In this document: positions 5,093 to 34,222 of the stretch, one piece after another
Numbering within the stretch: the stretch's first letter is position 1
How the letters are laid out: each line of letters starts with the position of its first letter
Source: a virus
Length of the DNA: 34,222 nucleotides
Virus genome (UHGV): UHGV-0086334
Reading direction: 5' to 3' (one strand)
Position numbers and translations under genes: made by a program
Notes under the pieces: generated by a model
The model's database searches: none
What the model was told of the DNA's origin: nothing
What the model saw: only the letters and a program-made list of their open reading frames with translations

Positions 5093-5112
5093 GACGCGCC
5101 AGCGTCTTTTTT
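5093..5112 (+). terminator. Intrinsic terminator-like hairpin
   Basis: GACGC-gcca-GCGTC followed by TTTTTT, about 60 nt downstream of the promoter and before the antirepressor gene. Confidence 0.5.
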
Positions 5113-5272
5113 ATTGTCGTGCGCACAGCCACATCCGCGATTTATGGTGGGGCGTGTAGGGGAGTCGAAAGGCTCGCCGGGTCCTTTTAGCCGGTAGTGC
5201 AAACCCTGCATGTCTCACCACCCAAAGATTTGCACCTGAGGGGGGTGATTATCCGACTAAAAGGAAATCGCT

Positions 5273-6067: not shown

Positions 6068-6244
6068 CAGGTTGAATGTTTGGTGCGGTTATACTCTATT
6101 TGCGCTTAAAAAGGTATTTAGTCACAACCAGCACGAGGCCGAATACTCTGTCAAAGTACCGCCCATGTAAAACTGTAACGTATGTACTTGATGACTAAGC
6201 TGGCACCAGGTTAACACCAGGCGCCAGCTTGAAGGAAACTTCAG

Positions 6245-9628: not shown

Positions 9629-10480
<852 letters not shown>

Positions 10481-19180: not shown

Positions 19181-19423
19181 GGTTGTTGTTTTTCTGTAAG
19201 GATATCAATAAGTTCAAGATATATACATATATGGAAAACTTGTGCGGTAGTCTATCGATACAGCGCAAAAGGATGACTCGCTACCAAAGTGAAAGCTTAC
19301 GCTGATAATCAGATACACAAAGCTGAGGTATGCAAACAAGTACGTCGCGAGGCTACAGTTGAGTTTAATGAACCTGATGCGAGCCCCCGATTCCTGTCCC
19401 GAAAGGGAGATAGCCCCCCTGGT

Positions 19424-19470
19424 CGCGGGTCCTTTCTGGTATCCAAAATACCGAGGGTCGGTAGACGCGC
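19424..19470 (+). promoter_or_regulatory. Putative cos region of the resident prophage (diverged)
   Basis: GCGGGTCCTTTCTGGTATCC resembles my recollection of lambda cosQ-proximal sequence; GGGTCGGTAGAC sits where the 12-nt cohesive end would be, about 70 bp before the small terminase. Confidence 0.35.
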
Positions 19471-19534
19471 AAAAACTCACTCGTTTTTAGTATTTTTTCA
19501 TTTTGGGTATTTCCGGTTCCGGTGAGGATTTTTA

Positions 19535-20101
19535 ATGGCAAGTCAGGCTGAGGTCGCAGCACATTTACTGCTATCTGATCGTCGTCTGCGCGATCTTGCA
19601 AAACTTCCGGGAGCCCCAGTCCCCCAAGGACGTGGCGATTGGGAACTTGACGCATGGCGCCATTTTTATATTCGTTATCTCCGGAGCAATAGACGCGACA
19701 CAACTAGTAATGACGAACCGGAAGCGGGGGACAATTCTCCCGAAAAAAATCGCGAGCAGTGGTTGAAAAATGAGGAACGGCAGGAGCGAATCCTGATGGC
19801 TCGCGTGAAACGCCGCATTCTTGCTAAACGCTACGCGCCAATTGAATTAATCAGCGTAGCTGTATCTCGCGTCGCAGTTGAATTACGTACCCGTGTCGAA
19901 TCGTGGCCACCACGGTTAAAAAAGGTGTGGCCGGAAATGCCGCAGGAGGCGAGCAGTGTATTACGAGAGGAGCTGGCAATAGCCCTGAATGAACTGGCAG
20001 ACATACGAATCGACTTCAGCGATTACGATGTCAGCGATATCGAACGCGATCTCGACAGGGTTGAATCCCTTGCGCGTGACGATACCGATGACGGGGGTTG
20101 A
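19535..20101 (+). CDS. Terminase small subunit (Nu1-type, diverged)
   Basis: 188 aa immediately upstream of and overlapping the large terminase; N-terminal winged-HTH-like region. Confidence 0.6.
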   Translation: MASQAEVAAHLLLSDRRLRDLAKLPGAPVPQGRGDWELDAWRHFYIRYLRSNRRDTTSNDEPEAGDNSPEKNREQWLKNEERQERILMARVKRRILAKRYAPIELISVAVSRVAVELRTRVESWPPRLKKVWPEMPQEASSVLREELAIALNELADIRIDFSDYDVSDIERDLDRVESLARDDTDDGG

Positions 20102-21950: not shown

Positions 21951-22183
21951 TGACCGCGCGCGAGGTTTTAACAGAACGGCTGCTGGAAGCGGAAATCGCT
22001 CTGCACAAATTATTAACGGGTAAATCGACCGTGTCGCTGTCTCACGGCGATTCAGCGGGAAATAACCGGAGCTATCAGTACTCCCAGGCGAGTATTGAAC
22101 AGCTCCGAACGTACATTATCGAGCTGAAATCACAGCTCGGTCTGAGTACGGGACGCCGCCGTCCCGTGGGAGTTCGATTATGA
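21950..22183 (+). CDS. W: Head-tail joining protein, lambda gpW-like
   Basis: 77 aa; LHKLLTGK...YIIELKSQLG...RRRP resembles lambda gpW; gene order A-W-B. Confidence 0.75.
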   Translation: MTAREVLTERLLEAEIALHKLLTGKSTVSLSHGDSAGNNRSYQYSQASIEQLRTYIIELKSQLGLSTGRRRPVGVRL

Positions 22184-23003
22184 CTGCTCCACAGCAGCTG
22201 CTCGGGCCTGACGGTAAAACGCCACTACGCCGTTTTGCGGGGTATAACGGCGGCGGTCCCGGTTTCGGTGGCCAGCTGATTGACTGGAATGCGCCACAGC
22301 AAAGCGCCGATGCGGCACTGCTGCCTAATTTTTATCGCGGTAACGCGCGAGCAGACGATCTCGTTCGCAATAACGGTGTCGCGTCGAACGCCGTGCAGCT
22401 GCACCAGGATCATATTGTCGGCAATCTGTTTAAATTGAGTTATCGCCCTAACTGGCGTTACCTAGGGATATCTCGCGAGGACGCCAGGGCGCTGGCGCGT
22501 GACGTTGAGGTCGCGTGGACTGAATACGCTGAGGACCCTCACTGCACGATTGATATCGAGCGGAAACGGACGTTCACAATGATGATCCGCGAGGGTGTGG
22601 CCACTCACGCGTTTAACGGTGAAACCTGCGTACAACCGGTCTGGGAAAGCAGTACCGGTAGCGTTTTTCGGACGCGATTCAAAATGGTTTCGCCGAAACG
22701 GATTCGAAATCCGGGTTACGCAGCTGACACCCGATTTCGCCGCGCCGGTGTTGATATCGATAAAAATGGAGCCGCAGTGGGCTACTGGATAGCCGAGGAC
22801 ACCTATCCACTCGGTGGAATCGGCAAGTGCCGGCGTATACCAGCGCAGCTCAGCAGCGGCAGACACGCATTCATTCACATATTCGAGCCGCTCGAGGACG
22901 GACAGACCCGCGGAGATAACATTTTCTACAGCGTGATGGAGCGTCTGAAAATGCTCGACACGCTGCAGCAAACACAACTGCAGAGCGCCATTGTGAAGGC
23001 GAT
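22180..23003 (+). pseudogene. B: Portal protein (lambda gpB-like), 5' fragment interrupted by insertion
   Basis: LLGPDGKTPLRRFAGYNGGGPGFGGQL, LLPNFYRGNARADDLVRNNG, KRTFTMMIREGVATHAFNGE, DGQTRGDNIFYSVMERLKMLDTLQQTQLQSAIVKA match lambda gpB; after codon ...VKA the frame reads IYVYHLTVVARIVRQLH and stops at 23055. Confidence 0.85.
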
Positions 23004-23010
23004 TTATGTC
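22996..23010. other. attL core of inserted element
   Basis: AAGGCGATTTATGTC here versus AAGGCGATGTATGCC at 33898..33912 (13 of 15 identical), at the exact points where portal homology breaks and resumes. Confidence 0.6.
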
Positions 23011-23132
23011 TATCATCTCACCGTAGTTGCCCGCATCGTTCGCCAACTCCACTGAAACCCTTGCTGCGTCTGGAATGTCGTTTTCCATGCTTTTGATGAC
23101 CGTTCATCACCCTTCCAGTTTTTCGCGGTTTT

Positions 23133-23185
23133 GTGTATTGCAATGTGTATTGCAAATTGGCGATCGGGATGGGTGTGTATTGCAA
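23133..23185 (+). repeat. Integrase arm-type repeats (attL side)
   Basis: Three copies of TGTGTATTGCAA at 23133, 23144 and 23174, just upstream of the integrase. Confidence 0.55.
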
Positions 23186-23203
23186 ATCTCTTGAGGGCTT
23201 TTA

Positions 23204-24445
23204 ATGGCTATTGAAAACAAACTCAGTGACAAACTGTTAAAGAGTCTTGTCGGAAAACGGCAGGACAAACAAAAAACAATAGCGGATGGGCGCGGGTTGT
23301 CTGTGCGTGTAAGCATGGTTGGGGGGATCAGCTTTGTTTTTTACTATCGTCTTGGTGGCAGGGAATCCCCTCCGGTATGGCTTACACTTGGTCGCTATCC
23401 TGACATGTCTCTTGCAACGGCCAGGCGCATGCGTGATCAGTGCCGTGAATGGCTGGCTGAAAATCTGGACCCCCGCAGGCAAATAAAACTTGCTGCCGAA
23501 AAAACTATGCAACCAGTGACCGTAAGGGATGCGCTGTTTTACTGGTACGACAATCACGCCACAACAGCCAGAAAAGAGCATGAATATTTAATAAAACGAT
23601 TTGAAAAGCATATCTTCCCCTATATCGGTGATATGGCTATAGAACAGTGCAAATTACACACATGGCTTACCGTCTTTGACAGGATCAAAAAAAATGCGCC
23701 TGTTATGTCTGGTGCAATTTTTCTTGATATCAAACAGGCGTTGCGTTTTTGTCGCGTCAGGCAATACATCGCGTGCGATCCCTTTGGAGATATTAACGTA
23801 AGTTATGTCGGGCGCTCATCCGGTATAAGGGATCGCGTTCTTAATATCAATGAAACCGCTGATGTATGGTCTTATGCTTACGGTAATAATTTGCTAACTC
23901 TGTCATCAATATATAACCGAAGAATAATGGTTATCTGCCTGGTGTTTGGTTGCCGACAGCAGGAGGCGAGGCTATCCACTTGGGACGAATGGGATTTAAA
24001 AAACTGGGTATGGACAGTCCCAAAAGAGCACAGCAAAAACAAGGAGGCTATAGTAAGGCCTGTTCCTGACGGAATAAAACAATGGATCGTTAATCTTTAC
24101 GCAGAAACAAAAAATCGCGGTTATGTTGTCGGTTGTGCTTTGCAAAGGGCGACAATAACAGGGGCTGCAAACAGAATATGCAGGCGTCTTGGTCATGATA
24201 CTAATGGCTTGTGGTGCATACATGATTTCAGGCGCACATTTTCCACTACGCTTAATGATATGGGGGCGGATCCTTATATTGTCGAACTTCTTTTAGGTCA
24301 TAAAGTGAAAGGGGTTGCTGGTGTTTACAATAAAAGCAGGCATATAAAGAAAAAACTTGAGGTGCTTAATATGTGGGTTAATTACCTTAATACGATAGCA
24401 GGATTTAACAACAACGTTATCGAGCTTAATAAAGAGGTGGTGTGA
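23204..24445 (+). CDS. int: Tyrosine integrase, P4-type
   Basis: 413 aa; N-terminal LSDKLLKSL...DGRGLSVRVS arm-binding-type domain, catalytic blocks HDFRRTFST and LLGH...VYNK. Confidence 0.9.
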   Translation: MAIENKLSDKLLKSLVGKRQDKQKTIADGRGLSVRVSMVGGISFVFYYRLGGRESPPVWLTLGRYPDMSLATARRMRDQCREWLAENLDPRRQIKLAAEKTMQPVTVRDALFYWYDNHATTARKEHEYLIKRFEKHIFPYIGDMAIEQCKLHTWLTVFDRIKKNAPVMSGAIFLDIKQALRFCRVRQYIACDPFGDINVSYVGRSSGIRDRVLNINETADVWSYAYGNNLLTLSSIYNRRIMVICLVFGCRQQEARLSTWDEWDLKNWVWTVPKEHSKNKEAIVRPVPDGIKQWIVNLYAETKNRGYVVGCALQRATITGAANRICRRLGHDTNGLWCIHDFRRTFSTTLNDMGADPYIVELLLGHKVKGVAGVYNKSRHIKKKLEVLNMWVNYLNTIAGFNNNVIELNKEVV

Positions 24446-24446
24446 T

Positions 24447-24704
24447 ATGGCAATTTATTCTCTTGTTGATGAAAACGATTTGCGCACAATGAAGGACATT
24501 GATCGGTTCATTCGTGAAAAAGAGTGCATAGCACTTACCACGCTGGCAAACTCAACACGCTGGAAAATGGAGCAGGCAGGTAAATTCCCGCGACGTATCA
24601 AGATCGGTGAACGTGCTGCAGGGTATCGACTTTCAGAGGTTCAGGCATGGATCCGTGGTGAGTGGCATCCTGGATGGAAACCTGGAAAAACAAAACAGCA
24701 ATAA
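24447..24704 (+). CDS. AlpA-family DNA-binding regulator/excisionase-like
   Basis: 85 aa; RWKMEQAGKFPRRIKIGERAAGYRLSEVQAWI is the AlpA-type winged HTH; directly follows int. Confidence 0.7.
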   Translation: MAIYSLVDENDLRTMKDIDRFIREKECIALTTLANSTRWKMEQAGKFPRRIKIGERAAGYRLSEVQAWIRGEWHPGWKPGKTKQQ

Positions 24705-24715
24705 CCAGTAAATAA

Positions 24716-24740
24716 TGCCCCTCATCACGAGGGGTTTTTT
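24716..24740 (+). terminator. Intrinsic terminator
   Basis: CCCCTC-atcac-GAGGGG followed by TTTTTT. Confidence 0.6.
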
Positions 24741-24760
24741 GTCTATAAGGTAAAAACGCG

Positions 24761-25339
24761 ATGAATAAAAATATTGCCGTGACGGGCAAGGGGTACGCTC
24801 GTCCAGTGAAAAAATTCTGCGATATTCGTGATCTCGTCGTTCTGCGCTTTGATAGTGTGAACGTTCGTGTGGTGTATCTGAACGGCGATCCGTGGTTTGT
24901 TGCAAAAGATGTTTGTGCTGCGCTGGAACTAACCAATTCGCGTACGGCGTTGCAGATGCTTGATGATGATGAAAAGGGAGTAAATTTAACTTACACCCCA
25001 GGAGGAAATCAGAATATGAGAATTATCTCTGAGTCAGGTTTCTACAAACTAATAGCCCGCAGCCGCAAAGCAACGACGCCTGGCACATTTGCTCATCGTT
25101 TCAGTAACTGGGTATTCAGAAATGTGATACCAGGTATCAGAAAAACGGGGACTTATGGTATCCCGTGGGGTGCATTACAGGATTTTTCCCGCCGTAAAGA
25201 GCAATATCAAATAAGTGCCAGCGAGAAGGGGAGGGAGCTACAGGCATGTAAGCGCAAAAAGCGTGAGCTGGAGGAAGAAGAAAAAACGCTGATACGTGAA
25301 TATCAGCCTGAGTTTTACTTTGGTAACCGCATTCAGTGA
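24761..25339 (+). CDS. Bro-N domain protein (antirepressor-like)
   Basis: 192 aa; DPWFVAKDVCAALEL, ESGFYKLIARSRK, FSNWVF..VIPGIRKTGTYG fit the Bro-N domain. Confidence 0.7.
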   Translation: MNKNIAVTGKGYARPVKKFCDIRDLVVLRFDSVNVRVVYLNGDPWFVAKDVCAALELTNSRTALQMLDDDEKGVNLTYTPGGNQNMRIISESGFYKLIARSRKATTPGTFAHRFSNWVFRNVIPGIRKTGTYGIPWGALQDFSRRKEQYQISASEKGRELQACKRKKRELEEEEKTLIREYQPEFYFGNRIQ

Positions 25340-25348
25340 CAAAACAAA

Positions 25349-25369
25349 GGCGACCGCAAAAGGGTCGCC
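25349..25369. terminator. Stem-loop between convergent genes
   Basis: GGCGACC-gcaaaag-GGTCGCC right after the Bro-N stop; no clear T-tract. Confidence 0.4.
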
Positions 25370-25435
25370 AGTGGGAACAAGGGAAAACAAAAGCATCACC
25401 AACAATGCCACATTTGCGGCTGGTGGGCAATGTGA

Positions 25436-25615
25436 TCAGTCAGATTTGGTTCGTTCCAAGGTTTGCAACGAGAGCTTTTTCCTGTGCTCTTTAAGGAATT
25501 TCTCAAGAGCAAACGAACAAGGTGCGAATCTTTCTGATTCATGTTCATGCGCTATATTTTTGCGTCGTCTCTTACGAGTTGGTGATGGTGTTTTGGTTGA
25601 TTCTGTGTCGCTCAT
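25436..25615 (-). CDS. Small basic hypothetical protein (59 aa)
   Basis: My reading of the minus strand: ATG at 25615, AGGA RBS, MSDTESTKTPSPTRKRRRKNIAHEHESERF...; downstream of the repressor gene on the same strand. Confidence 0.25.
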   Translation of the reverse strand: MSDTESTKTPSPTRKRRRKNIAHEHESERFAPCSFALEKFLKEHRKKLSLQTLERTKSD

Positions 25616-25672
25616 GGTGCTGTCCTGTAAAGCAATGCGCCTGCGTTCCTCAAACTATGGCGCTGATATTGG

Positions 25673-25978
25673 CTATTCATGCTCTTTGACCTTGCGTCGC
25701 TGGAGTTCTTCACGCGCGACGGTGACGAGTTGCCCGATCTCCTCGGCTGCTTTGATGCCGATTTGTTCGACCTTAGCCAGGGCATCCAGTGACGACACAA
25801 GGGGATTTTCTCCGCTGCCTTCTGCTTGGCGGCGGGCTATTTCTCCGCGCATGGCGGTTACGATAAATCCGGCATTGCTTTCACCGTCCAGCTTAACGGA
25901 TTCCATCCCTTGCATAACATCTAGTGGGACTCTGACAGTTGTCAGTTGTGATTTTGCGTTTTTGTTAGCCGTTGCCAT
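25673..25978 (-). CDS. Putative repressor, possibly ribbon-helix-helix
   Basis: 101 aa; strong AGGAG RBS; divergent from the operator-bearing promoter at 26040; TTVRVPLDVMQGMESVKL is compatible with an RHH beta-strand/helix. Confidence 0.45.
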   Translation of the reverse strand: MATANKNAKSQLTTVRVPLDVMQGMESVKLDGESNAGFIVTAMRGEIARRQAEGSGENPLVSSLDALAKVEQIGIKAAEEIGQLVTVAREELQRRKVKEHE

Positions 25979-25999
25979 TTCTGAAACTCCTAATCATCG

Positions 26000-26077
26000 G
26001 TGTGTTTCAGTATACACAAAAAAAGAAATACAAAAAGCCTTGACGTGTGTTTCATGCGCTCATAACATGAAACACAC
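26000..26077. promoter_or_regulatory. Operator/promoter between divergent satellite genes
   Basis: Perfect inverted repeat GTGTGTTTCATG-n9-CATGAAACACAC (26045..26077) overlapping TTGACG -35 (26040..26045); third half-site GTGTGTTTCA at 26000..26009. Confidence 0.55.
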
Positions 26078-26168
26078 CGAAAGGATTGTTGAAATACAAA
26101 GAGCAACGCCCCGCAGTGCTGGGAACACATACGGGGCGTCTAACCAACAACGTAAACTAGGAGCCGTT

Positions 26169-26366
26169 ATGGTTGCTGTAAATCATATACCACACCTTGT
26201 ACACACACAAACGGCCTTTGTGTGGCGTTTTCTGGCACTGAGTGCCGGAGAATCTCAAATCATCCACGTAACCGCCTGGACGGAACGCGAAGCGCGTAGC
26301 CGTTGCCCGTCCGGTTGTGTTGCTGTATTCGCTGCAAAAATCCGCCAGGGAGTGAGTCATGCTTAA
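26169..26366 (+). CDS. Small hypothetical protein (65 aa), first gene of rightward satellite operon
   Basis: ATG 26169 preceded by AGGAG; it is the 3' part of the long ORF 25296..26366, whose upstream part I regard as non-coding. Confidence 0.45.
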   Translation: MVAVNHIPHLVHTQTAFVWRFLALSAGESQIIHVTAWTEREARSRCPSGCVAVFAAKIRQGVSHA

Positions 26367-26544
26367 AACCTTCCGTGTATTTGCCCGAGCTGTTAACCCA
26401 ATAGGCCACACAATTGGTATCGCTCAGAATGTGAAGGCTGTTAATGTTCAGACGGCTATTGCTGCGGTGAGAAGCGAATCATCAGAATATGGCTTATCAC
26501 AAGTCATTATTTCAGCAGTGTATGAATTAAAAGAGGTGCATTAA
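26359..26544 (+). CDS. Small hypothetical protein
   Basis: 61-aa ORF, start overlapping upstream stop. Confidence 0.4.
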   Translation: MLKTFRVFARAVNPIGHTIGIAQNVKAVNVQTAIAAVRSESSEYGLSQVIISAVYELKEVH

Positions 26545-26735
26545 TGCAGGAAATTACATTACACGAAGCCGCTGAACGTGCGCACCAGACAGAAATTATT
26601 TGCCGCCTTCTTGAGGTATACCCGAACAAAATTACAGATGCTGATATATCCGCACTGGCGAGCCTACTGGCGCGTCTTTCGGGAAGTGTCGCTAGTTTTT
26701 TGATTGAGGAAGAAAGTAAGCTGGTGGGGGATTAA
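26544..26735 (+). CDS. Small hypothetical protein
   Basis: 63-aa ORF, ATGA-type overlap. Confidence 0.4.
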   Translation: MQEITLHEAAERAHQTEIICRLLEVYPNKITDADISALASLLARLSGSVASFLIEEESKLVGD

Positions 26736-26957
26736 ATGAATACAGAACGGGAAGTCTTTTTTAAATTGTTAGCATGTGCAGAAAGTTCATTAACTTTAAA
26801 TAATTCAGCAAAAGCAATATTAAATATGTGGCTTGATTGCATAAATGACAATGAAGATGCAAATATTGCTTATGGCCTGTTGTCACTTATTGATGAATCA
26901 GCAGAAAAACTCAATGACGCAATAAATAGTGCCCTGCTATCAAATAAGTCGAGTTAA
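26736..26957 (+). CDS. Small hypothetical protein (AT-rich)
   Basis: 73-aa ORF, markedly more AT-rich than its neighbours. Confidence 0.4.
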   Translation: MNTEREVFFKLLACAESSLTLNNSAKAILNMWLDCINDNEDANIAYGLLSLIDESAEKLNDAINSALLSNKSS

Positions 26958-26974
26958 GTCGAGGAATAAATAAT

Positions 26975-27274
26975 ATGGAAATGAAAAATTCTGGCTTTAT
27001 TGCCAGCGGCCCCGCTCGACCTGAATTTATGAACGGCGATATTTACCGCGATAAATACGGCGGCACGGTAACGATTAAAGGCGTGGCAGAACGGCGCATC
27101 ACTTACCGCCGTGAGGGGTATAGCTATGACTGCGTGATGCCTGTTTATCAGTTCCGGCGTGATTTTTCCCTGGTATATGCCGCACCCCGCAGTAAATCCA
27201 TCAGCAGGGAAAAAGCGTGGGGAAATATCCAGAAAATGAAAACCATGATTAACGGATTCAGAGGTAAAAAATGA
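26975..27274 (+). CDS. Hypothetical protein
   Basis: 99-aa ORF with GAGGAA RBS; stop overlaps primase start. Confidence 0.45.
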   Translation: MEMKNSGFIASGPARPEFMNGDIYRDKYGGTVTIKGVAERRITYRREGYSYDCVMPVYQFRRDFSLVYAAPRSKSISREKAWGNIQKMKTMINGFRGKK

Positions 27275-29025
27275 AACTGGCACCGAACGTAAAACAGCAG
27301 TCACGCGGCATAAAACACAAAGGAACAGAAGTAATTATTTTTGCGGGTAGTGATGCCTGGGCACACGCGAAACAATGGCAGGAACATGATGCGCGTATGG
27401 CCGGAGATAATGAGCCTCCTGTGTGGCTTGGGGAGCAGCAGCTATCCGAACTGGATAATCTGCAAATTGTGCCGGAAGGCCGAAAATCAGCACGCATATA
27501 CAGGGCCGGATATCTTGCGCCTGTAATGATAAAGGCGATTGGTCAGAAGCTGGCGGCAGCAGGCGTACAGGATGCAAATTTTTATCCTGAGGGTATGCAC
27601 GGCCAGGAGGTGCAGAACTGGCGCGAATATCTGGCCCGTGAACGCCAGAATCTTTCTGATGGTCTGGTCATTGAGCTTCCGGTAAAGCAAAAGGCGCAAC
27701 TTTCGCAGATGGCGGACAGTGAGCGCGCGCAGTTGCTTGCCGATCGCTTTGATGGCGTTTGCGTACATCCTGAAAGTGAAATCGTTCACGTATGGCGCGG
27801 CGGGGTATGGTGTCCGGTCAGCACAATGGAACTTAGCCGCGAAATGGTGGCGATCTATTCAGAGCACAGGGCCACTTTCAGCAAGCGCGTAATCAATAAC
27901 GCCGTGGAAGCGTTAAAAGTTATTGCCGAACCAATGGGCGAGCCGTCTGGCGATTTGCTGCCGTTCGCCAATGGTGCGCTTGACCTGAAAACGGGGGAAT
28001 TTTCCCCGCACACGCCGGAGAACTGGATCACCACGCACAACGGCATTGAGTACACGCCACCAGCACCAGGGGAGAACATCCGCGATAACGCGCCAAACTT
28101 TCATAAATGGCTTGAGCACGCAGCCGGAAAAGACCCGCGCAAGATGATGCGTATATGTGCCGCGCTGTACATGATTATGGCGAACCGGTACGACTGGCAG
28201 ATGTTTATTGAGGCCACCGGAGACGGCGGGAGCGGTAAAAGTACATTCACACACATAGCCAGCCTTCTGGCAGGGAAACAGAACACGGTAAGCGCTGAAA
28301 TGACATCGCTTGATGATGCTGGTGGACGTGCGCAGGTTGTCGGGAGTCGTCTTATCGTCCTGGCTGACCAGCCGAAATATACAGGCGAAGGAACGGGCAT
28401 CAAGAAAATCACAGGCGGCGACCCCGTGGAAATTAACCCGAAATATGAAAAGCGTTTCACGGCGGTAATCAGGGCGGTGGTGCTGGCGACCAACAACAAC
28501 CCGATGATATTCACCGAACGGGCCGGAGGTGTGGCACGTCGTCGCGTGATTTTCCGTTTCGACAATATCGTCAGTGAGGCCGAAAAAGACAGGGAGCTAC
28601 CGGAAAAGATTGCGGCTGAAATCCCCGTTATTATCCGCCGATTGCTGGCGAACTTTACCGACCCTGAGAAGGCACGGGCTTTACTACTGGAACAGCGTGA
28701 CGGTGATGAAGCACTGGCAATAAAGCAACAGACGGATCCGGTTATTGAGTTTTGCCAGTTCCTGAATTTTCTGGAGGAAGCGCGCGGCCTGATGATGGGT
28801 GGCGGTGGTGATTCAGTGAAGTACACGACCAGGAACAGCCTTTACCGCGTCTATCTGGCGTTTATGGCATACGCGGGCAGGAGCAAACCGCTAAACGTGG
28901 CTGAGTTCAGCAAGGCCATGAAGCCAGCGGCGAAAGTTTACGGGCATGAATATATTACGCGAAAAGTTAAGGGAGTAACGCAGACCAACGCAATTACAAC
29001 AGACGATTGCGACGCGTTTTTATAA
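27271..29025 (+). CDS. Primase-helicase (P4 alpha / PICI Pri-Rep-like), SF3 helicase domain
   Basis: 584 aa; Walker A GDGGSGKSTF, RLIVLADQ Walker B-like, D5-type C-terminal region; followed by iterons. Confidence 0.85.
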   Translation: MKLAPNVKQQSRGIKHKGTEVIIFAGSDAWAHAKQWQEHDARMAGDNEPPVWLGEQQLSELDNLQIVPEGRKSARIYRAGYLAPVMIKAIGQKLAAAGVQDANFYPEGMHGQEVQNWREYLARERQNLSDGLVIELPVKQKAQLSQMADSERAQLLADRFDGVCVHPESEIVHVWRGGVWCPVSTMELSREMVAIYSEHRATFSKRVINNAVEALKVIAEPMGEPSGDLLPFANGALDLKTGEFSPHTPENWITTHNGIEYTPPAPGENIRDNAPNFHKWLEHAAGKDPRKMMRICAALYMIMANRYDWQMFIEATGDGGSGKSTFTHIASLLAGKQNTVSAEMTSLDDAGGRAQVVGSRLIVLADQPKYTGEGTGIKKITGGDPVEINPKYEKRFTAVIRAVVLATNNNPMIFTERAGGVARRRVIFRFDNIVSEAEKDRELPEKIAAEIPVIIRRLLANFTDPEKARALLLEQRDGDEALAIKQQTDPVIEFCQFLNFLEEARGLMMGGGGDSVKYTTRNSLYRVYLAFMAYAGRSKPLNVAEFSKAMKPAAKVYGHEYITRKVKGVTQTNAITTDDCDAFL

Positions 29026-29040
29026 TTTTTTGTAAAAGCC

Positions 29041-29262
29041 ATCTACCCCATCTACCTGAACGAAATAAACGCATATTATTCAACATGATAAGTGGGTATA
29101 GGGCTAGGTAGAAGGCTAATAAAAGCTCTCTACCTCTTCTACCTGATTTTATCAGTTTCAGGTAGCAGGGTAGACGGCAGGTAGAGGAGTCAAAAAAGCT
29201 ATCTACCCGCTGAAAGCGTCGCCATTACTGACATGATGAGTATTCGGGTAGATGGGTAGAGG
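29041..29262. repeat. Iteron-type replication origin
   Basis: About 12 direct and inverted copies of (A/T)CTACC or GGTAG(A/T) right after the primase-helicase gene. Confidence 0.65.
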
Positions 29263-29313
29263 GGGGGAGGCACAACTAAAAACTTTTTAAACGAGGGGGG
29301 GGGGTGAAAATAA

Positions 29314-29628
29314 ATGCGCATACATAAAAATCACTTAACAAACATGCCAGCCGAAAACATGAATCAGGGGCGACAAATGACCAAAATTCGCAGAGACAGA
29401 ACACAGGCAAAATATAAAGCGTTAGACATGACAGAGCTTTCCTTAAAGGTGGCAATCAAAGCGATAGACCACCACACACGGGCAGGATACGCGAAGGAAC
29501 ATCCCGACCTGATAAGCGCATTTATGACCACAGCAGCGGCAAACTTTGCCACGCTGACAGAACGGGAGATTGCCGAAGCGGAACAGGTGACAACCATCAA
29601 TGTTAAAACCGGAGAGCAGACAGCATGA
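29314..29628 (+). CDS. Hypothetical protein
   Basis: ORF track 104 aa; likelier start ATG 29377 (AGGGG RBS). Confidence 0.45.
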   Translation: MRIHKNHLTNMPAENMNQGRQMTKIRRDRTQAKYKALDMTELSLKVAIKAIDHHTRAGYAKEHPDLISAFMTTAAANFATLTEREIAEAEQVTTINVKTGEQTA

Positions 29629-30047
29629 CAGCACAGATAGCGGCTTACGGGCGGCTGGTGGCTGACCCGCAGTTAAAGACCACCAGCAAAGGGACACAAA
29701 TGGCGATGGCGAGTATGGCGGTTCCCCTGCCGTGCAGCCAGGCAGATGACGGAACGGCGACGATGTGGTTATCCGTCCTGGCGTTTGGCAGACAGGCCGA
29801 CGCACTGGCAAAACACCACAAAGGCGAACTGGTGAGCGTGGCGGGTAACATGCAGGTAAGCCAGTGGACAGGCCAGAACGGCGAAACGCGGCGGGGCTGG
29901 CAGGTTATCGCAGACAGCGTAATCAGTGCGCGAACGGCGCGACCGGGCGGCAAAAAAGGCCAGCAGGGGCAGGCCACTGACGCACTGAACAGGGCAAAAC
30001 AACAGTCGGGGAATGATGATCCGTACGGCGATAATATACCGTTTTAA
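29625..30047 (+). CDS. Single-stranded DNA-binding protein (SSB-like)
   Basis: 140 aa; YGRLVADPQLKTT, TMWLSVLAFGRQA, Gly/Gln-rich linker and acidic tail ending DDPYGDNIPF. Confidence 0.7.
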   Translation: MTAQIAAYGRLVADPQLKTTSKGTQMAMASMAVPLPCSQADDGTATMWLSVLAFGRQADALAKHHKGELVSVAGNMQVSQWTGQNGETRRGWQVIADSVISARTARPGGKKGQQGQATDALNRAKQQSGNDDPYGDNIPF

Positions 30048-30063
30048 ATTCTGCAAACAAAAA

Positions 30064-30092
30064 GATGCCGGAAAAAAATAGATTTTCCGGCA
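30064..30092. terminator. Stem-loop, possible terminator
   Basis: ATGCCGGAAAA-n7-TTTTCCGGCAT inverted repeat after the SSB stop. Confidence 0.45.
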
Positions 30093-30258
30093 TGCTACAT
30101 AAATCCCGACCAAAGGAAGTAAATACATTAACACGAATTATCAGCACTGAAGTTGTTACGGCATATTTTATACAACATTGCACTTGGTTGCATGTGTTCG
30201 CATAGCAGACATCGGTAATAGAATATATTCACAATTATTTGTAATGAATGTAAAGAGG

Positions 30259-31305
30259 ATGAGTATGGTTGATTTATATTCGCCTACACAGCTTGTGCAG
30301 GTGGCTAATGCTGAAGATGTGCAAAAAAAATTAAATGCGTTGTTTACCAGTTTGTTTTTCACTCGCTCGGTAATGTTTGAATCGAGAGACATTATTCTTG
30401 ATACGATCGACGATCCAAATATCCCGATCGCGGCGTTTTGCTCTCCTATGGTGGGCAGTAAAGTTTCACGAGATGAGGGATACGAATCAAAAACAATTCG
30501 TCCAGGTTATATGAAGCCGAAAAGCAGCATTGATCCAAATAAGTTAGCTGTGCGCCCTGCTGGTGTGTCACCTGAGCAATACAATGCTTTTGGGGCGCGT
30601 AATATTAAAGTTAAACAGGCGATTGTAAATCAGGCTAAAGCTATTCGTGCACGTATTGAATGGCTTGCTGTTCAGGCAATCACAACGGGGAAAAATATCA
30701 TTGAGGGCGATGGTATTGAACGTTATGAGCTGGACTGGAATATAAAACCACAAAATATCATCACTCAGTCTGGCGGTACTGAGTGGTCAGGTAAGGATAA
30801 AGAAACTTTTGATCCAAATGATGATATTGAGAGCTACGCAGAATTTAGTGAGGGCGTCACTAATATCATCATTATGGGTGGTAATGTATGGAAGAAATAC
30901 CGTTCATTCAGAGCGATAAAAGAGGCTTTGGATACCCGTCGTGGTTCTAATTCCGAACTGGAAACGGCCCTTAAAGACCTTGGTGATTCGGTGAGTTTTA
31001 AAGGGTATATGGGCGATGTTGCGATTGTTGTTTACAGCGGGCGTTATACCGACGAGGACGGAACAGAAAAACATTTCCTTGATCCTGATTTGATGGTGCT
31101 TGGCAATACGGCTCTTCAGGGGATTGTCGCCTATGGCGGTATTCAGGATCCGGAGCTAATCCGAATGGGGCTGACTAAAGCCGAACTTGCACCGAAAAAC
31201 TATATTGTGCCTGGTGATCCGGCTATTGAATATGTGCAGACACATTCAGCACCACAGCCAATACCGGCCCGCATCAATCGTTTTGTTACCGTTCGCATTG
31301 GCTAA
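30259..31305 (+). CDS. E: Major capsid protein, lambda gpE-like
   Basis: Starts MSM as lambda gpE does; IITQSGGTEWSGKDKETFDPNDDIESYA, FRAIKEALDTRRGSNSELETALKDLG, GDVAIVVYSGRY, MVLGNT match my recollection of lambda gpE. Confidence 0.85.
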   Translation: MSMVDLYSPTQLVQVANAEDVQKKLNALFTSLFFTRSVMFESRDIILDTIDDPNIPIAAFCSPMVGSKVSRDEGYESKTIRPGYMKPKSSIDPNKLAVRPAGVSPEQYNAFGARNIKVKQAIVNQAKAIRARIEWLAVQAITTGKNIIEGDGIERYELDWNIKPQNIITQSGGTEWSGKDKETFDPNDDIESYAEFSEGVTNIIIMGGNVWKKYRSFRAIKEALDTRRGSNSELETALKDLGDSVSFKGYMGDVAIVVYSGRYTDEDGTEKHFLDPDLMVLGNTALQGIVAYGGIQDPELIRMGLTKAELAPKNYIVPGDPAIEYVQTHSAPQPIPARINRFVTVRIG

Positions 31306-31314
31306 GGGGGAGCA

Positions 31315-31656
31315 ATGGCTACTCATTACACTGAACTCATGGCTGGCACTGAAGCACTGGTGACTACGCTGGGGATATTTTCAGCTAATAAAGGGGTAAT
31401 TCCTGCATTTACGCCACTGATGCAGGAAGATGCAACAGGTGCACTGGTGGTATGGGATGGTTCGAGCGTAGGTAAAGCGGTTTATGTTTCCGCTGTACAA
31501 ATCGACACCGCGAAAAAAATACAGGCTCAGGTCTATAAGACAGGTGTCTTAAATGTTGATGCTCTGAACTGGCCTGAGTCTGTTAAAGAACTGTCAGTAA
31601 AGGTTGCAGCGTTTGTTGGCTCAGGTATTTCTGTTCAGCCGCTGGCTCGTGTGTAA
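31315..31656 (+). CDS. D: Capsid decoration protein, lambda gpD-like
   Basis: 113 aa; FTPLM, LVVWDGSSVGKAV, YKTGV, WPES, AAFVGSGISV match lambda gpD blocks. Confidence 0.75.
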   Translation: MATHYTELMAGTEALVTTLGIFSANKGVIPAFTPLMQEDATGALVVWDGSSVGKAVYVSAVQIDTAKKIQAQVYKTGVLNVDALNWPESVKELSVKVAAFVGSGISVQPLARV

Positions 31657-31667
31657 AGGGGGATACA

Positions 31668-32051
31668 ATGCAGAATGATTACAATGACCTTAAGCCAATT
31701 GCCGAAATGATGTACCCGAATCCAGCTGTAGAGGAATTAAAAGCTATCGCTGACAAAATGTGTTTAAGCGAGCGCCTTGTTGATATGAATCAGGTGATGG
31801 AAATTACAACCCTGAGTCGTCGTACACTGCTAAACCTTGAGGCTAGTGGAGAGTTCCCGGAGCGTGTGCAGGTTACGGAAGGGCGTAAGGCCTGGTATTT
31901 AAGTGAAGTGATCGACTGGATAAATAATATTCCTCGCGCTTCTGAATATTGCCGCGTACCTGTCCCAAAAAAGCCAGATGCGGCGCTATGCCTCAAGATT
32001 GAGCGTGTACGCCGCAATGCACGGGATGGTCGCTATAAGCTGATTGGTTGA
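31668..32051 (+). CDS. AlpA-family HTH protein
   Basis: 127 aa; VMEITTLSRRTLLNLEASGEFPERVQVTEGRKAWYLSEVIDWI is an AlpA-type HTH; AGGGGG RBS. Confidence 0.6.
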   Translation: MQNDYNDLKPIAEMMYPNPAVEELKAIADKMCLSERLVDMNQVMEITTLSRRTLLNLEASGEFPERVQVTEGRKAWYLSEVIDWINNIPRASEYCRVPVPKKPDAALCLKIERVRRNARDGRYKLIG

Positions 32052-32074
32052 TGAAATTAGGGCCCGCTCTGGCT

Positions 32075-32135
32075 GGCGGGTCCTTTCCGGTGATCCGGTA
32101 GGCTACGGGGCGGCGACCTCGCGGGTTTTCGCTAT
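32075..32135 (+). other. Lambda-type cos site of the inserted element
   Basis: GGGTCCTTTCCGGTGATCCGGTAGGCTACG then GGGCGGCGACCT (32108..32119) then CGCGGGTTTTCGCTATTTATGA; the 12-mer is the lambda cohesive-end sequence as I recall it, and the flanks match lambda's right and left ends. Confidence 0.75.
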
Positions 32136-32252
32136 TTATGAGCCTTTTTCGGGTGCTGGTGGTGGTTTTGTTGTTCGCTCTATCTCTATGAATAAAAAGG
32201 AAAAGATAAAGCCAATACACCAACCTGAAACATTACTTAAGTGGGGATATTG

Positions 32253-32795
32253 ATGAAATCGCACCTGATGAACAAAAAAAACATGGCGCAAAGCTGCCGT
32301 GTAAGTGCGACAGCGTTCGACAAGTGGGGAGTGACTCCCGTTGAACGTAAAGGCCGCGAGGCGTTTTATGATGTTGCCAGCGTAATAGACAATCGGGTTA
32401 GCAATGCAATTAACCAGATTACAGACGACAAAGGCGAGATTGATGATGATGAACTCCTACGAGTCAGGATCAGATTGCTGACAGCACAGGCAGAGGCGCA
32501 GGAGCTTAAAAACGAGCGCGAACGCGGCGACGTTATTGATACAGCGTTTTGTATATACGTGCTTTCAAAATTGGCGAGTCAGATTTCTTCAATCATGGAC
32601 AGCCTGCCGCTTGCCATGACAAGGAAGTTTCCCGACATGAAGCCGTCTATGCTGGATGGACTGAAAAAAGAAGTTATCAGAGCCTGTAACGCATGCGCAA
32701 AACTTGACGAAAACATACCGCTGATGCTGTCCGATTATCTGATGGAAACTGCCGGAAACGTACCGGATAAGTTGCAGCCGAATAAAGATAAGTAA
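32253..32795 (+). CDS. Nu1: Terminase small subunit, lambda Nu1-like
   Basis: LLTAQAEAQELKNERERGDVIDTAFCIYVLSKLASQISSIMDSLPLAMTRKFPDM...KLDENIPLMLSDYL aligns closely with lambda Nu1 C-terminal half; N-terminus MNKKNMAQ resembles Nu1 MEVNKKQLA; start could be ATG 32268. Confidence 0.8.
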   Translation: MKSHLMNKKNMAQSCRVSATAFDKWGVTPVERKGREAFYDVASVIDNRVSNAINQITDDKGEIDDDELLRVRIRLLTAQAEAQELKNERERGDVIDTAFCIYVLSKLASQISSIMDSLPLAMTRKFPDMKPSMLDGLKKEVIRACNACAKLDENIPLMLSDYLMETAGNVPDKLQPNKDK

Positions 32796-32806
32796 CGTAG
32801 TACGCT

Positions 32807-33088
32807 ATGACTGAATCCGAAATACTGCGATTAATCCGCCGTGCTTGTGGAATCAGCAAGCAGCATGACGAACAGGCCACGCAGCCGGACAGCGTGACCG
32901 CAGATAATTATGTGCGTGTAGTGGCTGAGGTGATGCGCCGTGACGGTATTGAGCTTAACGGCGTGGATATGCGCAACATACGAACAAGAGTCCTTGAGTT
33001 GCTGGCATATCGTCGCCGTTCTCAACAACGGAGGGAGAGCGCGAAAAATACTTACCAGTGGAAGAAGCCGGAACGATTGCGGCGGTAA
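32807..33088 (+). CDS. Hypothetical protein
   Basis: 93-aa ORF, Arg-rich C-terminus. Confidence 0.4.
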   Translation: MTESEILRLIRRACGISKQHDEQATQPDSVTADNYVRVVAEVMRRDGIELNGVDMRNIRTRVLELLAYRRRSQQRRESAKNTYQWKKPERLRR

Positions 33089-33344
33089 CTTGCTGATATT
33101 CCCGATAACGCAAAATTGCGCTGGCTGACTTGTTGCATTGCAAAAAGTTAAGCAGGAAGGCACGGCCTGTAAGATGGGATGCAGTAAGTAGTTCAAGGCT
33201 ACCTTGTGCTGGCACGCACAGTTAAGCCGTCGGTGCTGGATATCCCCCACTGGGGGAAAAGCTGGCTACATCCCTCACATCTGAGGACTGATAACGCGAC
33301 ATTGCGCTGGCTGGCAAAGTGCAAAATTGCACGATGGCCTAACC

Positions 33345-33494
33345 CATTGATTATTTCGAAAACCTGCAATGCAGGAAATCGGGGAAGTAAGCCTAAGCTA
33401 TTGATTGTTTCGAAAACCCCCATTGGGGGATGTCGGGAAAGTAAGACTAACCCATTGATTCTTCCACAATCCTCAATTTGAGGAGGCCGGAACG
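33345..33494 (+). repeat. Three phased 54-bp tandem repeats, each with a central 13-bp palindrome
   Basis: Unit CATTGATT-n-TTCGAAAACC-palindrome-GGGAAGTAAG; palindromes CCTGCAaTGCAGG (33363), CCCCCAtTGGGGG (33417), CCTCAAtTTGAGG (33471) exactly 54 bp apart. Confidence 0.6.
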
Positions 33495-33801
33495 TCTACA
33501 TAGCTGCATCGCCGTAATGATGATTCAGCCCACCAGCCAAATCAGCACAGCAACGACAGAATAGCCCGACACAGAAAAACCACGAATATGGGGTTTTTGT
33601 TATGACATGGTCATGATGACCACTCATACAAAACAGGTAAAGCCCACCAGCCTGATTAAAGGTTAACCGGAAAAAAGCCAGGTATCCAATCTCGATATGG
33701 GGATCCCTATATCGACATTAACGCCCACTAAAACTGTGCATATATGCATAGAAAAAGCATCCACCAGCTTTATGACGGATGCCGCTCATCTTATAAATAA
33801 T

Positions 33802-33824
33802 CGTGTATTGCAGTGTGTATTGCG
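33802..33824 (+). repeat. Integrase arm-type repeats (attR side)
   Basis: CGTGTATTGCA and GTGTGTATTGCG, same motif as the attL-side repeats. Confidence 0.5.
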
Positions 33825-33897
33825 ACTCCTTTAAACGATAGGTCTGAGCATTCGTAATGTACTGTTTTTAAATTTTATTTTTTCCTGTCTTTTCATA

Positions 33898-33912
33898 AAG
33901 GCGATGTATGCC
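33898..33912. other. attR core of inserted element
   Basis: AAGGCGATGTATGCC; portal reading frame resumes here (K-A-M-Y-A-A-T-I-E-S-E-L-D). Confidence 0.6.
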
Positions 33913-34167
33913 GCGACAATCGAATCAGAGCTCGACAGCCAGCAGGCGTTTGAATATATCGCCGGCGCGGGTACTGATATCGACTCGAACCCACTGAATT
34001 CGTTTATTCAGAGTTACGTGACGTACTACAACGGCGCAAACATTAAATTAGGCGGCGTGAAAGTCCCTCACCTGCACCCCGGCGACAAACTCAGTTTACA
34101 GACCGCTCAGAACGCTGACGCTGGTTTCAGTTCGCTGGAAAAATCACTCCTGCGTTACGTTGCCGCT
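33898..34167 (+). pseudogene. B: Portal protein (lambda gpB-like), middle fragment, truncated at its 3' end
   Basis: [44 protein letters not shown] continue the lambda gpB alignment exactly where the 5' fragment stopped; ends at a TAG supplied by the following IS-like sequence. Confidence 0.85.
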
Positions 34168-34222
34168 TAGACTGGCCCCCTGAATCTCCAGACAACCAAT
34201 ATCACTTAAATAAGTGATAGTC
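34168..34222 (+). mobile_element. Terminal ~55 bp of an IS2-like insertion sequence (continues beyond window)
   Basis: TAGACTGGCCCCCTGAATCTCCAGACAACCAATATCACTTAAATAAGTGATAGTC matches my recollection of the IS2 terminus; portal homology ends abruptly here. Confidence 0.65.

Follow-up and report, generated by a model that had tools for sequence, protein, structure and literature searches.

The last third of a 34,222-nucleotide virus genome (UHGV-0086334; the whole stretch analyzed is called the window) holds a satellite that encodes its own coat and head decoration proteins. The 10.9-kb element at positions 22995-33905 is a classical enterobacterial PICI related to EcCICFT073, found in a helper-embedded configuration. 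The late zone of this PICI lineage opens, as a conserved feature, with the coat and decoration genes, and both are under strong purifying selection, with dN/dS about 0.1. Comparison of the sequences suggests that the pair likely plays a structural role in particles. Taken jointly, the identification of the element as a PICI and our reading of the coat/decoration module form an explanation in which we have high confidence. The element, its insertion site, the two genes and the crystal structure of a homologous PICI coat were already in the literature or in databases. The satellite-specific coat clade, the gene order shared by all 13 elements compared and the purifying selection go beyond previous descriptions.

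A PICI inserted in a prophage portal gene

The element interrupts the portal gene of a resident lambda-family prophage. The insertion truncates the 5' part of this gene (22180-23002, + strand), which covers positions 3-242 of the Pfam Phage_portal_2 profile and shares 68% identity with residues 9-279 of lambda gpB. The continuation (33898-34167, +) is 94% identical to the portal of the uninterrupted relative A42 and 56% to lambda gpB residues 274-364. Two copies of the identity core AAGGCGAT, the 8-mer of attL (22995-23002, +) and its identical copy in attR (33898-33905, +), bound the element, with 10,903 bp between them. The portal is rebuilt exactly across these cores when compared with A42, whose portal aligns up to position 23008 of the window, with a 13-base overlap at the junction. 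The same attB sequence occurs in lambda B, at nt 822. The Pfam portal profile is interrupted at position 242, and the site is the published B:Phage_portal_2:241, for which the name and the core (aaggcgat) are listed in the supplement of PMC10111431. The split at 23002/33898 lies within a late gene of the prophage, as in helper-embedded PICIs (HE-PICIs), and the insertion is co-directional: the main genes of the element are on the + strand, as are the terminase, gpW and portal genes of the prophage.

Next to attL, three copies of GTGTATTGCA, two of them 12 bp apart, are candidate arm-type integrase sites (23133-23184, +), and two further copies of the motif, GTGTATTGCR, adjoin attR (33803-33824, +). 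Five of the six GTGTATTGCR matches in the window lie at most 200 bp from the att cores, with pairs 12 bp apart, for 0.17 matches expected in the whole window. A doubled motif at the att sites of HE-PICIs was described by Tommasini et al. (PMC10111431), and our pairs are a candidate match to that description.

The resident prophage may not be a working helper. A sequence scan of the window found no lambda-type cosN in this prophage, whose large terminase shares 42% identity with lambda gpA. An insertion sequence cuts its portal a second time, at 34167. Positions 34163-34222, which include the end of this insertion sequence, match more than 4,500 plasmid records, and in the one plasmid record inspected an IS3-family transposase gene begins 37 bp past the match.

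The gene content is that of a PICI of Gram-negative bacteria. All five components of the SatelliteFinder PICI core set are present (int, alpA, primase, capsid and terS), and the size falls in the range of about 10-20 kb of these elements. At the left end, a tyrosine integrase gene (23204-24445; Pfam Arm-DNA-bind_3 and Phage_integrase) is followed by a gene for an AlpA regulator/excisionase (24447-24704; Pfam Phage_AlpA, 5.4e-14), both on the + strand. In pairwise comparisons, the integrase shares 88% identity with its counterpart from an Edwardsiella element that occupies the same portal site, and 52-54% with those of elements in coat-gene sites. Further genes follow on the same strand: a Bro zone with a Bro-N anti-repressor-like protein (24761-25339; Pfam Bro-N, 4.9e-20; PHROG 2593, anti-repressor), a DUF4222 protein (26975-27274; 9.3e-24; 74% identical to its EcCICFT073 counterpart), the element's own primase-replicase module (27271-29025; D5_N, DUF5906 and Pox_D5 by Pfam; PHROG 864; 98% identical to the EcCICFT073 primase) and a single-strand DNA-binding protein (29625-30047; Pfam SSB, 5.5e-16). 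Beyond the late genes described below lies a conserved 93-aa protein (32807-33088, +; PHROG 1561), 76% identical to the product of the last EcCICFT073 gene.

Pfam and PHROG searches of the element's ORFs found no tail, lysis, portal or large terminase families. Likewise, the RefSeq annotation of the same element in other genomes lists 16 genes, none of them for a portal or protease. The sequence-only reading of this DNA had described a satellite devoid of portal and protease, and this holds, since no ORF matches either family. A P4-like satellite was rejected, as the same searches gave no match to the Sid, Psu or Delta families, and so was a cf-PICI, as protease, portal, head-tail adaptors, HNH and TerL are absent. 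PADLOC made no defence assignment among the three element genes scanned, and Rfam matched nothing within the element. Most of the element is present in 53 complete genomes of Escherichia coli, at 99.4-99.9% identity in the best 20 listed. It recurs in unrelated prophages; in the two E. coli genomes inspected, those of strains 20Y000092 and 210205630, it lies inside lambda-like prophages with full head modules downstream. For the relative EcCICFT073, helper-dependent induction, replication and high-frequency transfer have been reported.

A full-length coat protein of the gpE family

The capsid component of the core set is a major capsid protein gene of the gpE family. Its ORF matches Pfam Phage_cap_E (PF03864; E 2.9e-41, residues 14-345 of 348) and PHROG 29, major head protein (2e-89). 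BLASTP aligns it with lambda gpE at 42% identity across all 348 residues (E 2e-87), almost free of insertions and deletions. An AlphaFold model of the coat superposes with a TM score of 0.91 on the crystal structure of lambda gpE (7SJ5) and of 0.93 on 3BQW, the crystal structure of EcCICFT073 c1499, to which the coat is 55% identical. By sequence and modelled fold, the coat is a full-length member of the family. The proposal that this ORF and the next are homologues of gpE and gpD is thus borne out by Pfam, PHROG and BLASTP, and for the coat also by structure comparison.

Some details of that proposal need correction. It had the coat ORF begin at 30259, with 348 aa. The likely start is the ATG two codons downstream; an AAGAGG Shine-Dalgarno sequence (30253-30258) abuts the ATG at 30259. 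The gene then spans 30265-31305 (+) and encodes 346 aa, the length at which RefSeq annotates the identical protein. Among the motifs given as identical to lambda, LDTRRGSNSELETA and GDVAIVVYSG are so, while the other reads IITQSGGTEWS in the window and NITQSGGTEWS in lambda. The coat gene precedes the decoration gene, the reverse of lambda (D at 5747-6079, E at 6135-7160). With this order and an identity of only 42%, the region is not a copied lambda fragment, as had been argued. In residues 58-73, the differences between satellite and phage coats are conserved within each clade. Further conserved clade-specific differences are in what we take, approximately, to be the long helix and the C-terminal strands.

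The decoration protein and the rest of the late zone

The next gene (31315-31656, +) encodes a head decoration protein of 113 aa, of the gpD/SHP family. It matches Pfam HDPD (PF02924; 3.7e-14, 53.3 bits against a cut-off of 29.1) and PHROG 49, head decoration (1e-25), and its best match among solved structures is chain 1TD0, "Head decoration protein" (1.8e-15). The protein shares 37% identity with lambda gpD across 78 residues and 54% with EcCICFT073 c1500. Its N-terminus bears a motif specific to the clade, and its C-terminus is extended by VQPL. The E-loops of gpE in lambda are clamped by the gpD N-terminus.

Downstream lies a second AlpA-like helix-turn-helix gene (31668-32051, +; Pfam Phage_AlpA, 7.6e-09; PHROG 2790). 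A homologue is found 3' of the decoration gene in 10 of 13 elements, making it a conserved third member of the coat/decoration block. It is followed by a lambda-type cos (32078-32141, +), with a GGGTCCT that we take to be cosQ and then an exact cosN, GGGCGGCGACCT (32108-32119). This exact match is unique in the window, and the 22 bases after it are identical to the left end of lambda. A cos is present at the same position in the CFT073, Serratia, Kluyvera and Superficieibacter elements. The packaging component of the core set is completed by a Nu1-type small terminase gene (32253-32795, +; Pfam Phage_Nu1, 3.5e-24; PHROG 57; product 38% identical to lambda Nu1). A scan for promoters and terminators around the coat/decoration module did no better than on shuffled sequences. 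A weak promoter-like site (30197-30224) and a hairpin (30065-30093) lie near the module.

The pair is conserved across satellites

To compare the pair across satellites, we scanned species-representative genomes with the coat alignment, which gave 4 loci, and made a census of gene neighbourhoods in 13 elements. The coat gene is directly followed by the decoration gene in 13 out of 13 elements, from ten genera, and both ORFs are intact in all elements examined. The sequence-only reading had asked whether homologous elements always lack portal and protease. No portal gene is found inside any of the 13, but a protease is not always missing: in one, the decoration gene is followed by an S49 peptidase gene.

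Average-linkage clustering on identities, which is not a phylogeny, separates the coats of satellite context (5/5) from those of prophage context (5/5), with a mean identity of 42% between clusters. The coat of the window shares 41-42% identity with coat proteins from helper relatives, and the pair as a whole is set apart from its phage counterparts (about 42% identity for coats, 29-38% for decoration proteins). The dN/dS ratios of both genes are low: 0.09 (dS 1.1) for the coat and 0.12 for decoration. As dS is saturated in most pairs, these values come from the usable comparisons, with relatives at 85% (coat) and 94% (decoration) identity.

What the coat and decoration proteins may do

PICI capsid genes are not new. 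For EcCICFT073, which has no portal or protease, a publication of 2018 already described c1499 as a capsid protein and c1500 as a head decoration protein (PMC6092414), so the claim that such a gene set was undescribed has to be dropped. Among 29 reference Gram-negative PICIs, 21 have a major capsid gene (PMC10111431), and the five core components by which SatelliteFinder defines PICIs include one for the capsid (PMC10085698). Our searches of the freely accessible literature turned up no functional assignment for the gpE-like or gpD-like genes of PICIs in papers after 2019, and no published report of a PICI gpE-like protein in particles.

The separate satellite cluster, the order kept in 13 of 13 elements and the purifying selection together point to a putative structural role in particles as the likely one. 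The conservation of the cement would also argue for such a role, because a cementing protein acts only on expanded shells. In the mechanism that we propose, the coat would be a shell subunit of HK97 fold, able to assemble, and the decoration protein would serve as the cement cognate to it. Upon induction, both would be made alongside the head proteins of the helper and would enter, or form, shells carrying satellite DNA. These shells would take their portal, protease/scaffold, large terminase and tails from the helper, and the satellite DNA would be selected by its own Nu1-type TerS at the lambda-type cos of the satellite. We consider this proposal as a whole, with coat and cement in satellite-DNA shells built with helper parts, to have an even chance of being correct.

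One form of it was put forward by the sequence-only reading: satellite coat on helper portal and scaffold. This is possible and fits the selection data. Such chimeric heads, in which the satellite shell and cement would be joined to the portal, scaffold/protease and tail of the helper, are a tentative idea to which we give clearly less than an even chance. The deep satellite clade, the strict pairing and the dN/dS near 0.1 mildly favour them. Against any structural role, deletion of c1499 or c1500 from EcCICFT073 left transfer by the resident prophage and interference with lambda unchanged, and the DNA packaged was all of phage size (PMC6092414); there, the two genes are dispensable with the helpers tested. 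Because the proteins of the window share just 54-55% identity with c1499 and c1500, these results may not transfer, in either direction. Chimeric heads could also have escaped notice in EcCICFT073 if the helper coat made them redundant under laboratory conditions. The pair is thus kept under strong selection across many genera and yet has no deletion phenotype in the model system. Its role might lie in chimeric shells, in size switching or in a function seen only with certain helpers.

Size switching is rather unlikely in our view. The satellite coat would occupy certain positions, such as the pentamers, or the whole shell, and the resulting capsids would be too small for the helper genome, with room for one or two satellite copies. 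The SaPIbov5 protein Ccm, a coat homologue, does occupy pentamers and yields T=4 shells (PMC8569155), and the capsid component of PICIs is thought to alter the capsids they hijack (PMC10085698). PmCI172 likewise has small capsids and encodes a coat homologue. Capsid-volume scaling fits one 10.9-kb unit in a T=3 and two in a T=4 lambda-like shell, and the clade-specific differences in the long helix and C-terminal strands of the coat could be read in the same way. However, four units make 43.6 kb, which under the packaging limits of lambda suits a full-sized head, and the coat is nearly without indels relative to gpE. Moreover, all the DNA packaged for EcCICFT073, including with lambda as helper, was phage-sized, and the deletions were without effect (PMC6092414).

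It is more doubtful still that the two proteins serve interference only, as poison subunits or decoys that spoil the assembly of the helper or of competitors while staying out of functional particles. PICIs commonly hold interference functions in this zone, and a coat 42% identical to the helper's gpE could plausibly co-assemble badly with it. When the EcCICFT073 genes after ori were expressed singly, however, only c1503 (rppA) inhibited lambda, and its deletion fully restored plaques (PMC6739421), while interference persisted without c1499 or c1500 (PMC6092414). A poison subunit also needs no conserved cognate cementing protein.

Very improbably, the pair was captured from the late genes of a helper and is now decaying, without any present function. 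Tommasini et al. proposed that PICIs repeatedly capture helper late genes in their late zone and then lose them (PMC10111431), and the silent deletions in EcCICFT073 would agree with this (PMC6092414). The dN/dS of about 0.1, with ORFs intact in ten genera, largely refutes this reading, and the satellite coats form a deep cluster instead of being scattered among helper coats. Finally, nothing more than the presence of head genes speaks for a rearranged piece of the resident head cluster, or for a cf-PICI with a complete head module, and we give this next to no credence: precise att cores flank the genes, which belong to the insertion as the sequence-only reading held, the element recurs in unrelated prophages, its coat is divergent from those of helper relatives, and portal, protease, adaptors, HNH and TerL are all missing.

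Comparison with known systems

The closest characterized relative is EcCICFT073, the model PICI for Gram-negative bacteria, from E. coli CFT073 (Fillol-Salom et al. 2018, 2019), which shares the order of int, alpA, small ORFs, DUF4222, primase, a small ORF and SSB, and then the late order of coat, decoration, packaging gene and conserved 93-aa ORF. It too has a lambda-type cosN and lacks portal and protease. It differs in its proteins (coat 55%, decoration 54% and integrase 40% identical to those of the element) and in its site, which is chromosomal, next to roxA, and not in a prophage portal gene. Its RppA retargets the helper TerS, whereas the element of the window carries its own Nu1-type TerS. 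The HE-PICI group B:Phage_portal_2:241 (Tommasini, Mageeney and Williams 2023) shows no essential difference from our element: it has the same profile position, core, co-direction and size of about 11 kb, and a common four-zone layout (integration, Bro, replication and late). The host prophage differs from the lambda packaging type in having another cos and TerS and a more distant large terminase, and is disrupted by an insertion sequence.

Lambda gpE and gpD, and the SHP of phage 21, have the same fold and family as the pair (TM 0.91 to gpE; HDPD). They differ from it by their identity (42% and 37% for the lambda proteins), by the reversed order in lambda, and by the separate satellite cluster and distinct decoration termini.

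Known satellites had been divided into those that remodel helper capsids with small scaffolds and those that carry a complete head module, which leaves out the class of SaPIbov5 Ccm (PMC8569155). Ccm (Carpena 2016; Hawkins 2021) is likewise a satellite coat homologue, without portal or protease of its own and with a cos-type helper. It differs in being Gram-positive, in belonging to an unrelated HK97-fold subfamily and in having no accompanying decoration protein, and its switch of size and shape is demonstrated, whereas any function of the gpE-like PICI proteins is putative. The cf-PICIs (Alqurainy et al. 2023) share the left half, with int, alpA and replication genes, and a satellite-encoded coat, of a family unrelated to the gpE-like one. 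They add protease, portal, head-tail connectors, HNH, TerS and TerL, of which our element has only TerS. Chimeric heads, if they exist, would be midway between the capsid-hijacking and the capsid-forming PICIs, and settling the role of the pair would fill in the ground between the two known ways of PICIs, theft of whole capsids and construction of complete ones.

The coat and decoration genes

The gene at 30259-31305 (+), which the sequence-only reading had drawn as a 348-aa ORF homologous to lambda gpE, encodes a full-length member of this coat family. Pfam, PHROG, BLAST, and fold comparison all agree: the protein matches Phage_cap_E over residues 14-345 (E 2.9e-41) and PHROG 29, major head protein (2e-89), shares 42% identity with lambda gpE along its entire length (E 2e-87), and has an AlphaFold model (mean pLDDT 75.6, pTM 0.78) with TM scores of 0.91 to the lambda gpE crystal structure (7SJ5) and 0.93 to PDB 3BQW, its top solved-structure match (E 1e-121). 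One motif quoted as shared with lambda is off by one residue, since the window has IITQSGGTEWS where lambda has NITQSGGTEWS. Translation probably begins at the ATG at 30265 rather than 30259, because an AAGAGG is well spaced from it and the identical 346-aa RefSeq protein starts there.

The next ORF (31315-31656, +) belongs to the gpD/SHP family, as had been proposed. It matches HDPD in Pfam (3.7e-14) and PHROG 49 (1e-25), lambda gpD is 37% identical to it, and its top solved-structure match is chain 1TD0, 'Head decoration protein'. Seen against the lambda map, the order of coat then decoration is indeed reversed, and only 135 bases of the coat gene resemble lambda E at the DNA level, which agrees with the view that this is not a copied lambda fragment. 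We also considered a recent copy from a helper and rejected it, as the coat shares 41-42% identity with the gpE proteins of lambda and of helper relatives; these values also rule out a rearranged piece of the resident head cluster, the origin against which the sequence-only reading had set its proposal. The gpE proteins of different helper lineages are 54-62% identical to one another.

Upstream of the coat gene, a hairpin with an 11-bp stem, ATGCCGGAAAA...TTTTCCGGCAT (30065-30093), lies directly after ssb, and a weak sigma-70-like site (TTCGCA, 16 nt, TAGAAT; 30197-30224) is found in AT-rich intergenic sequence 40 bp before the gene. As a whole, the scan for hairpins and sigma-70-like sites around the module did not rise above shuffled sequence.

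The element and its insertion site

The element, a PICI, brings genes of its own for integration, regulation, and replication. Its main genes all lie on the + strand: int, alpA, a Bro-N gene, small ORFs, a DUF4222 gene, and the genes of a D5-type primase and SSB are followed in the right part by coat, decoration, a second AlpA-like gene, a lambda-type cos, a Nu1-type TerS, and a conserved 93-aa ORF. In comparisons with Pfam and PHROG, none of the ORFs of the insert hit portal, protease, adaptor, large terminase, tail, or lysis families, so the description of a satellite lacking portal and protease stands. The cos (32078-32141) has an exact cosN, the next 22 bases are identical to lambda, and a cosQ-like GGGTCCT lies 30 bases upstream. 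The C-terminal half of TerS is best conserved. The 93-aa protein (32807-33088), encoded by the last gene, has a basic C-terminus and a function-less annotation (PHROG 1561); it is 76% identical to the product of the last gene of the model PICI EcCICFT073, occurs in several relatives, always after a TerS or Rpp gene, and may be a packaging accessory.

The host prophage is lambdoid; its genes include those for a replicative DnaB-type helicase, the large terminase (19989-21950), gpW, and the portal (from 22180), and the element sits co-directionally within its late operon. The portal reading frame is interrupted at 23002 and picks up again at 33898, with the att 8-mer AAGGCGAT at both junctions (22995-23002 and 33898-33905) and 10,903 bp of insert between the att cores. 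The uninterrupted portal gene of E. coli strain A42, from a prophage 95% identical, aligns to 22111-23008 and 33898-34167 with an overlap of 13 bases. Five copies of GTGTATTGCR, against 0.17 expected in the window, occur in 12-bp-spaced pairs beside both att cores and are probably arm-type integrase sites. Lambda B carries an identical attB.

Both the element and its site are already published, and the genes carried are those typical of a known family. The name helper-embedded PICI for this configuration comes from Tommasini, Mageeney and Williams (2023, PMC10111431), whose supplement includes 11-kb E. coli elements at the site B_Phage_portal_2_241 with the identity block 'aaggcgat', exactly as in the window, where the Pfam portal profile is cut at position 242. 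Most of the insert is present in 53 complete E. coli genomes (the 20 best listed are 99.4-99.9% identical). In the two that were inspected, it splits the portal gene of a lambda-like prophage that occupies the DLP12 locus, and is directly followed by the portal remainder, S49 protease, D, E, FI, FII, and tail genes. The prophage/satellite junction of the window was found in none of the complete E. coli genomes of the collection.

Distribution of the module in related elements

Identity-based clustering of 113 full-length coat homologues gave a satellite group (n=49), holding all five proteins known from satellites, and a phage group (n=64), holding all five known from prophage head modules. 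Members of the satellite group average 60% identity to one another and those of the phage group 68%, against a mean of 42% across the two groups. Clade-conserved coat differences concentrate at residues 58-73, 121-151, and 324-334, whose mapping onto structural elements is approximate. In the satellite decoration proteins the N-terminus is short and has the motif (H/P)Y-x-E-L-x-A-G-T, and the C-terminus carries a VQPL extension; the phage gpD and SHP proteins compared have neither feature. In lambda, the gpD N-terminus binds the E-loops of gpE, and these signatures thus resemble what a cognate coat/cement interface would look like.

We compared thirteen elements, from Escherichia, Serratia, Edwardsiella, Lelliottia, Salmonella, Cedecea, Kluyvera, Superficieibacter, and Kosakonia, plus a 99.9% copy of the window element, with sites near fis, in coat and portal genes, and in a tail region. 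The decoration gene directly follows the coat gene in all 13, and an AlpA-like gene is the third member of the module in ten; a Nu1-type TerS is found in 5/13 and an Rpp-like protein in two. None of the elements contains a portal (0/13), and one has an S49 protease. This one is a Lelliottia sp. SL45 PICI near fis (L011, 10001-12752), whose order E, D, C, all in one orientation, is the exact reverse of lambda C, D, E; in this PICI a Phage_HCP gene also follows alpA, and an Rpp-like gene is present.

Between window 30265-32795 and an E. coli helper-embedded PICI at a coat-gene site (L013, 10001-12487), identity is 85% for the coat (dS 1.1, dN/dS 0.09), 94% for the decoration protein (dS 0.25, dN/dS 0.12), 79% for the AlpA-like protein, and 93% for TerS. 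Purifying selection is thus strong on both structural genes. The uneven identities imply a mosaic late zone, with putative recombination breakpoints between neighbouring module genes. The slot after the AlpA-like gene, filled in the window by cos, TerS, and the 93-aa ORF, holds reverse-strand, defence-looking cargo in three close relatives (L012 13180-13941, L014 12230-13546, L015 12106-13254), with Abi_C, AF_1680, and TIR domains.

The host prophage of this copy

In packaging the host prophage departs from lambda: a Nu1 domain is absent from its small terminase, its gpA and that of lambda share 42% identity, and the region upstream of its terS (19380-19535) has a cosQ-like GGGTCCT and no lambda cosN. 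In the A42 relative, a lambda-type head module occurs alongside a P2-type baseplate. The satellite cos matches the helper cos in E. coli 20Y000092, not that of the window prophage, and the integrase, and with it the location of the satellite, seems to follow the conserved portal attB rather than packaging compatibility. About 270 bp after attR, one end of an IS3-family, IS2-like element (34168-34222) cuts the portal again, at 34167; window 34163-34222 matches >4,500 plasmid records, and in the one inspected the start of an IS3-family transposase gene is 37 bp past the match. Because of this second cut the prophage is portal-defective and could not make heads even after satellite excision.

Other loci of the prophage deserve mention. 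A close PD-T4-3 match (PADLOC, E 7e-138) with a GIY-YIG nuclease domain (9629-10480, -) and its neighbour, a 411-aa HNH_2 protein (8313-9548, -), border a low-GC block (GC 0.32-0.40, about 10.5-14.5 kb) in which three ORFs gave no confident family match (10761-12140, 12464-13126, 13605-14384). Tandem Rfam isrK (76 bits) and C4 antisense RNA (74 bits) matches at 5037-5225 precede an ORF6N gene (5273-6067), an arrangement known from RNA-based immunity in P4 and PICI Bro zones and located here in the early region of the prophage, not in the satellite.

Role of the pair and comparison with known systems

From work on relatives, helper induction would activate alpA and excision, which would also repair the portal gene; the element would then replicate, its TerS would steer the gpA-type large terminase of the helper to the satellite cos, and concatemers would be packaged. 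Four units make 43.6 kb, which fits a lambda-sized head. The pair may then have a structural role, as an assembly-competent shell subunit with a cement of its own that would be built onto portal, scaffold/protease, and tails from the helper. We give this reading an even chance and favour it because selection is strong along the whole length, the fold is complete, and the cognate cement has been retained, a protein that would be useless unless expanded shells of the matching coat exist. In EcCICFT073 the capsid protein is c1499 and the head decoration protein c1500, and deleting either gene singly left lambda interference and resident-prophage transfer unchanged (Fillol-Salom et al. 2018, PMC6092414), which argues against the necessity of the pair, not against its participation.

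One form of the structural role would be size redirection, as by SaPIbov5 Ccm, a coat homologue that occupies pentamers and acts without satellite portal or protease (PMC8569155). The packaged DNA of EcCICFT073 is all phage-sized (PMC6092414), and we regard this form as unlikely. Still less probable is a pair serving interference only: among the late-zone genes of EcCICFT073 expressed individually, only c1503 (rppA) inhibited lambda, and its deletion fully restored plaques (PMC6739421, 2019). A functionless relic is scarcely credible, both ORFs being intact in every copy examined.

The mechanism drawn by the sequence-only reading is reasonable, but neither new nor demonstrated. Its division of satellites into those with small scaffolds and those with complete head modules was incomplete, leaving out Ccm. 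A major capsid gene is present in 21/29 reference Gram-negative PICIs (PMC10111431), and 'capsid morphogenesis' is one of five PICI core components, with 97% of the elements having all five coming from E. coli (Moura de Sousa et al. 2023, PMC10085698). In classical PICIs the coat and cement genes are a conserved pair under selection. EcCICFT073 resembles the window element in its left and middle parts, with a primase 98% identical and the same gene order. The claim of novelty fails, since such a coat and decoration pair has been on record since 2018 as c1499/c1500, and a solved structure with 100% identity to c1499 is PDB 3BQW, a 2008 deposit titled 'putative capsid protein of prophage'.
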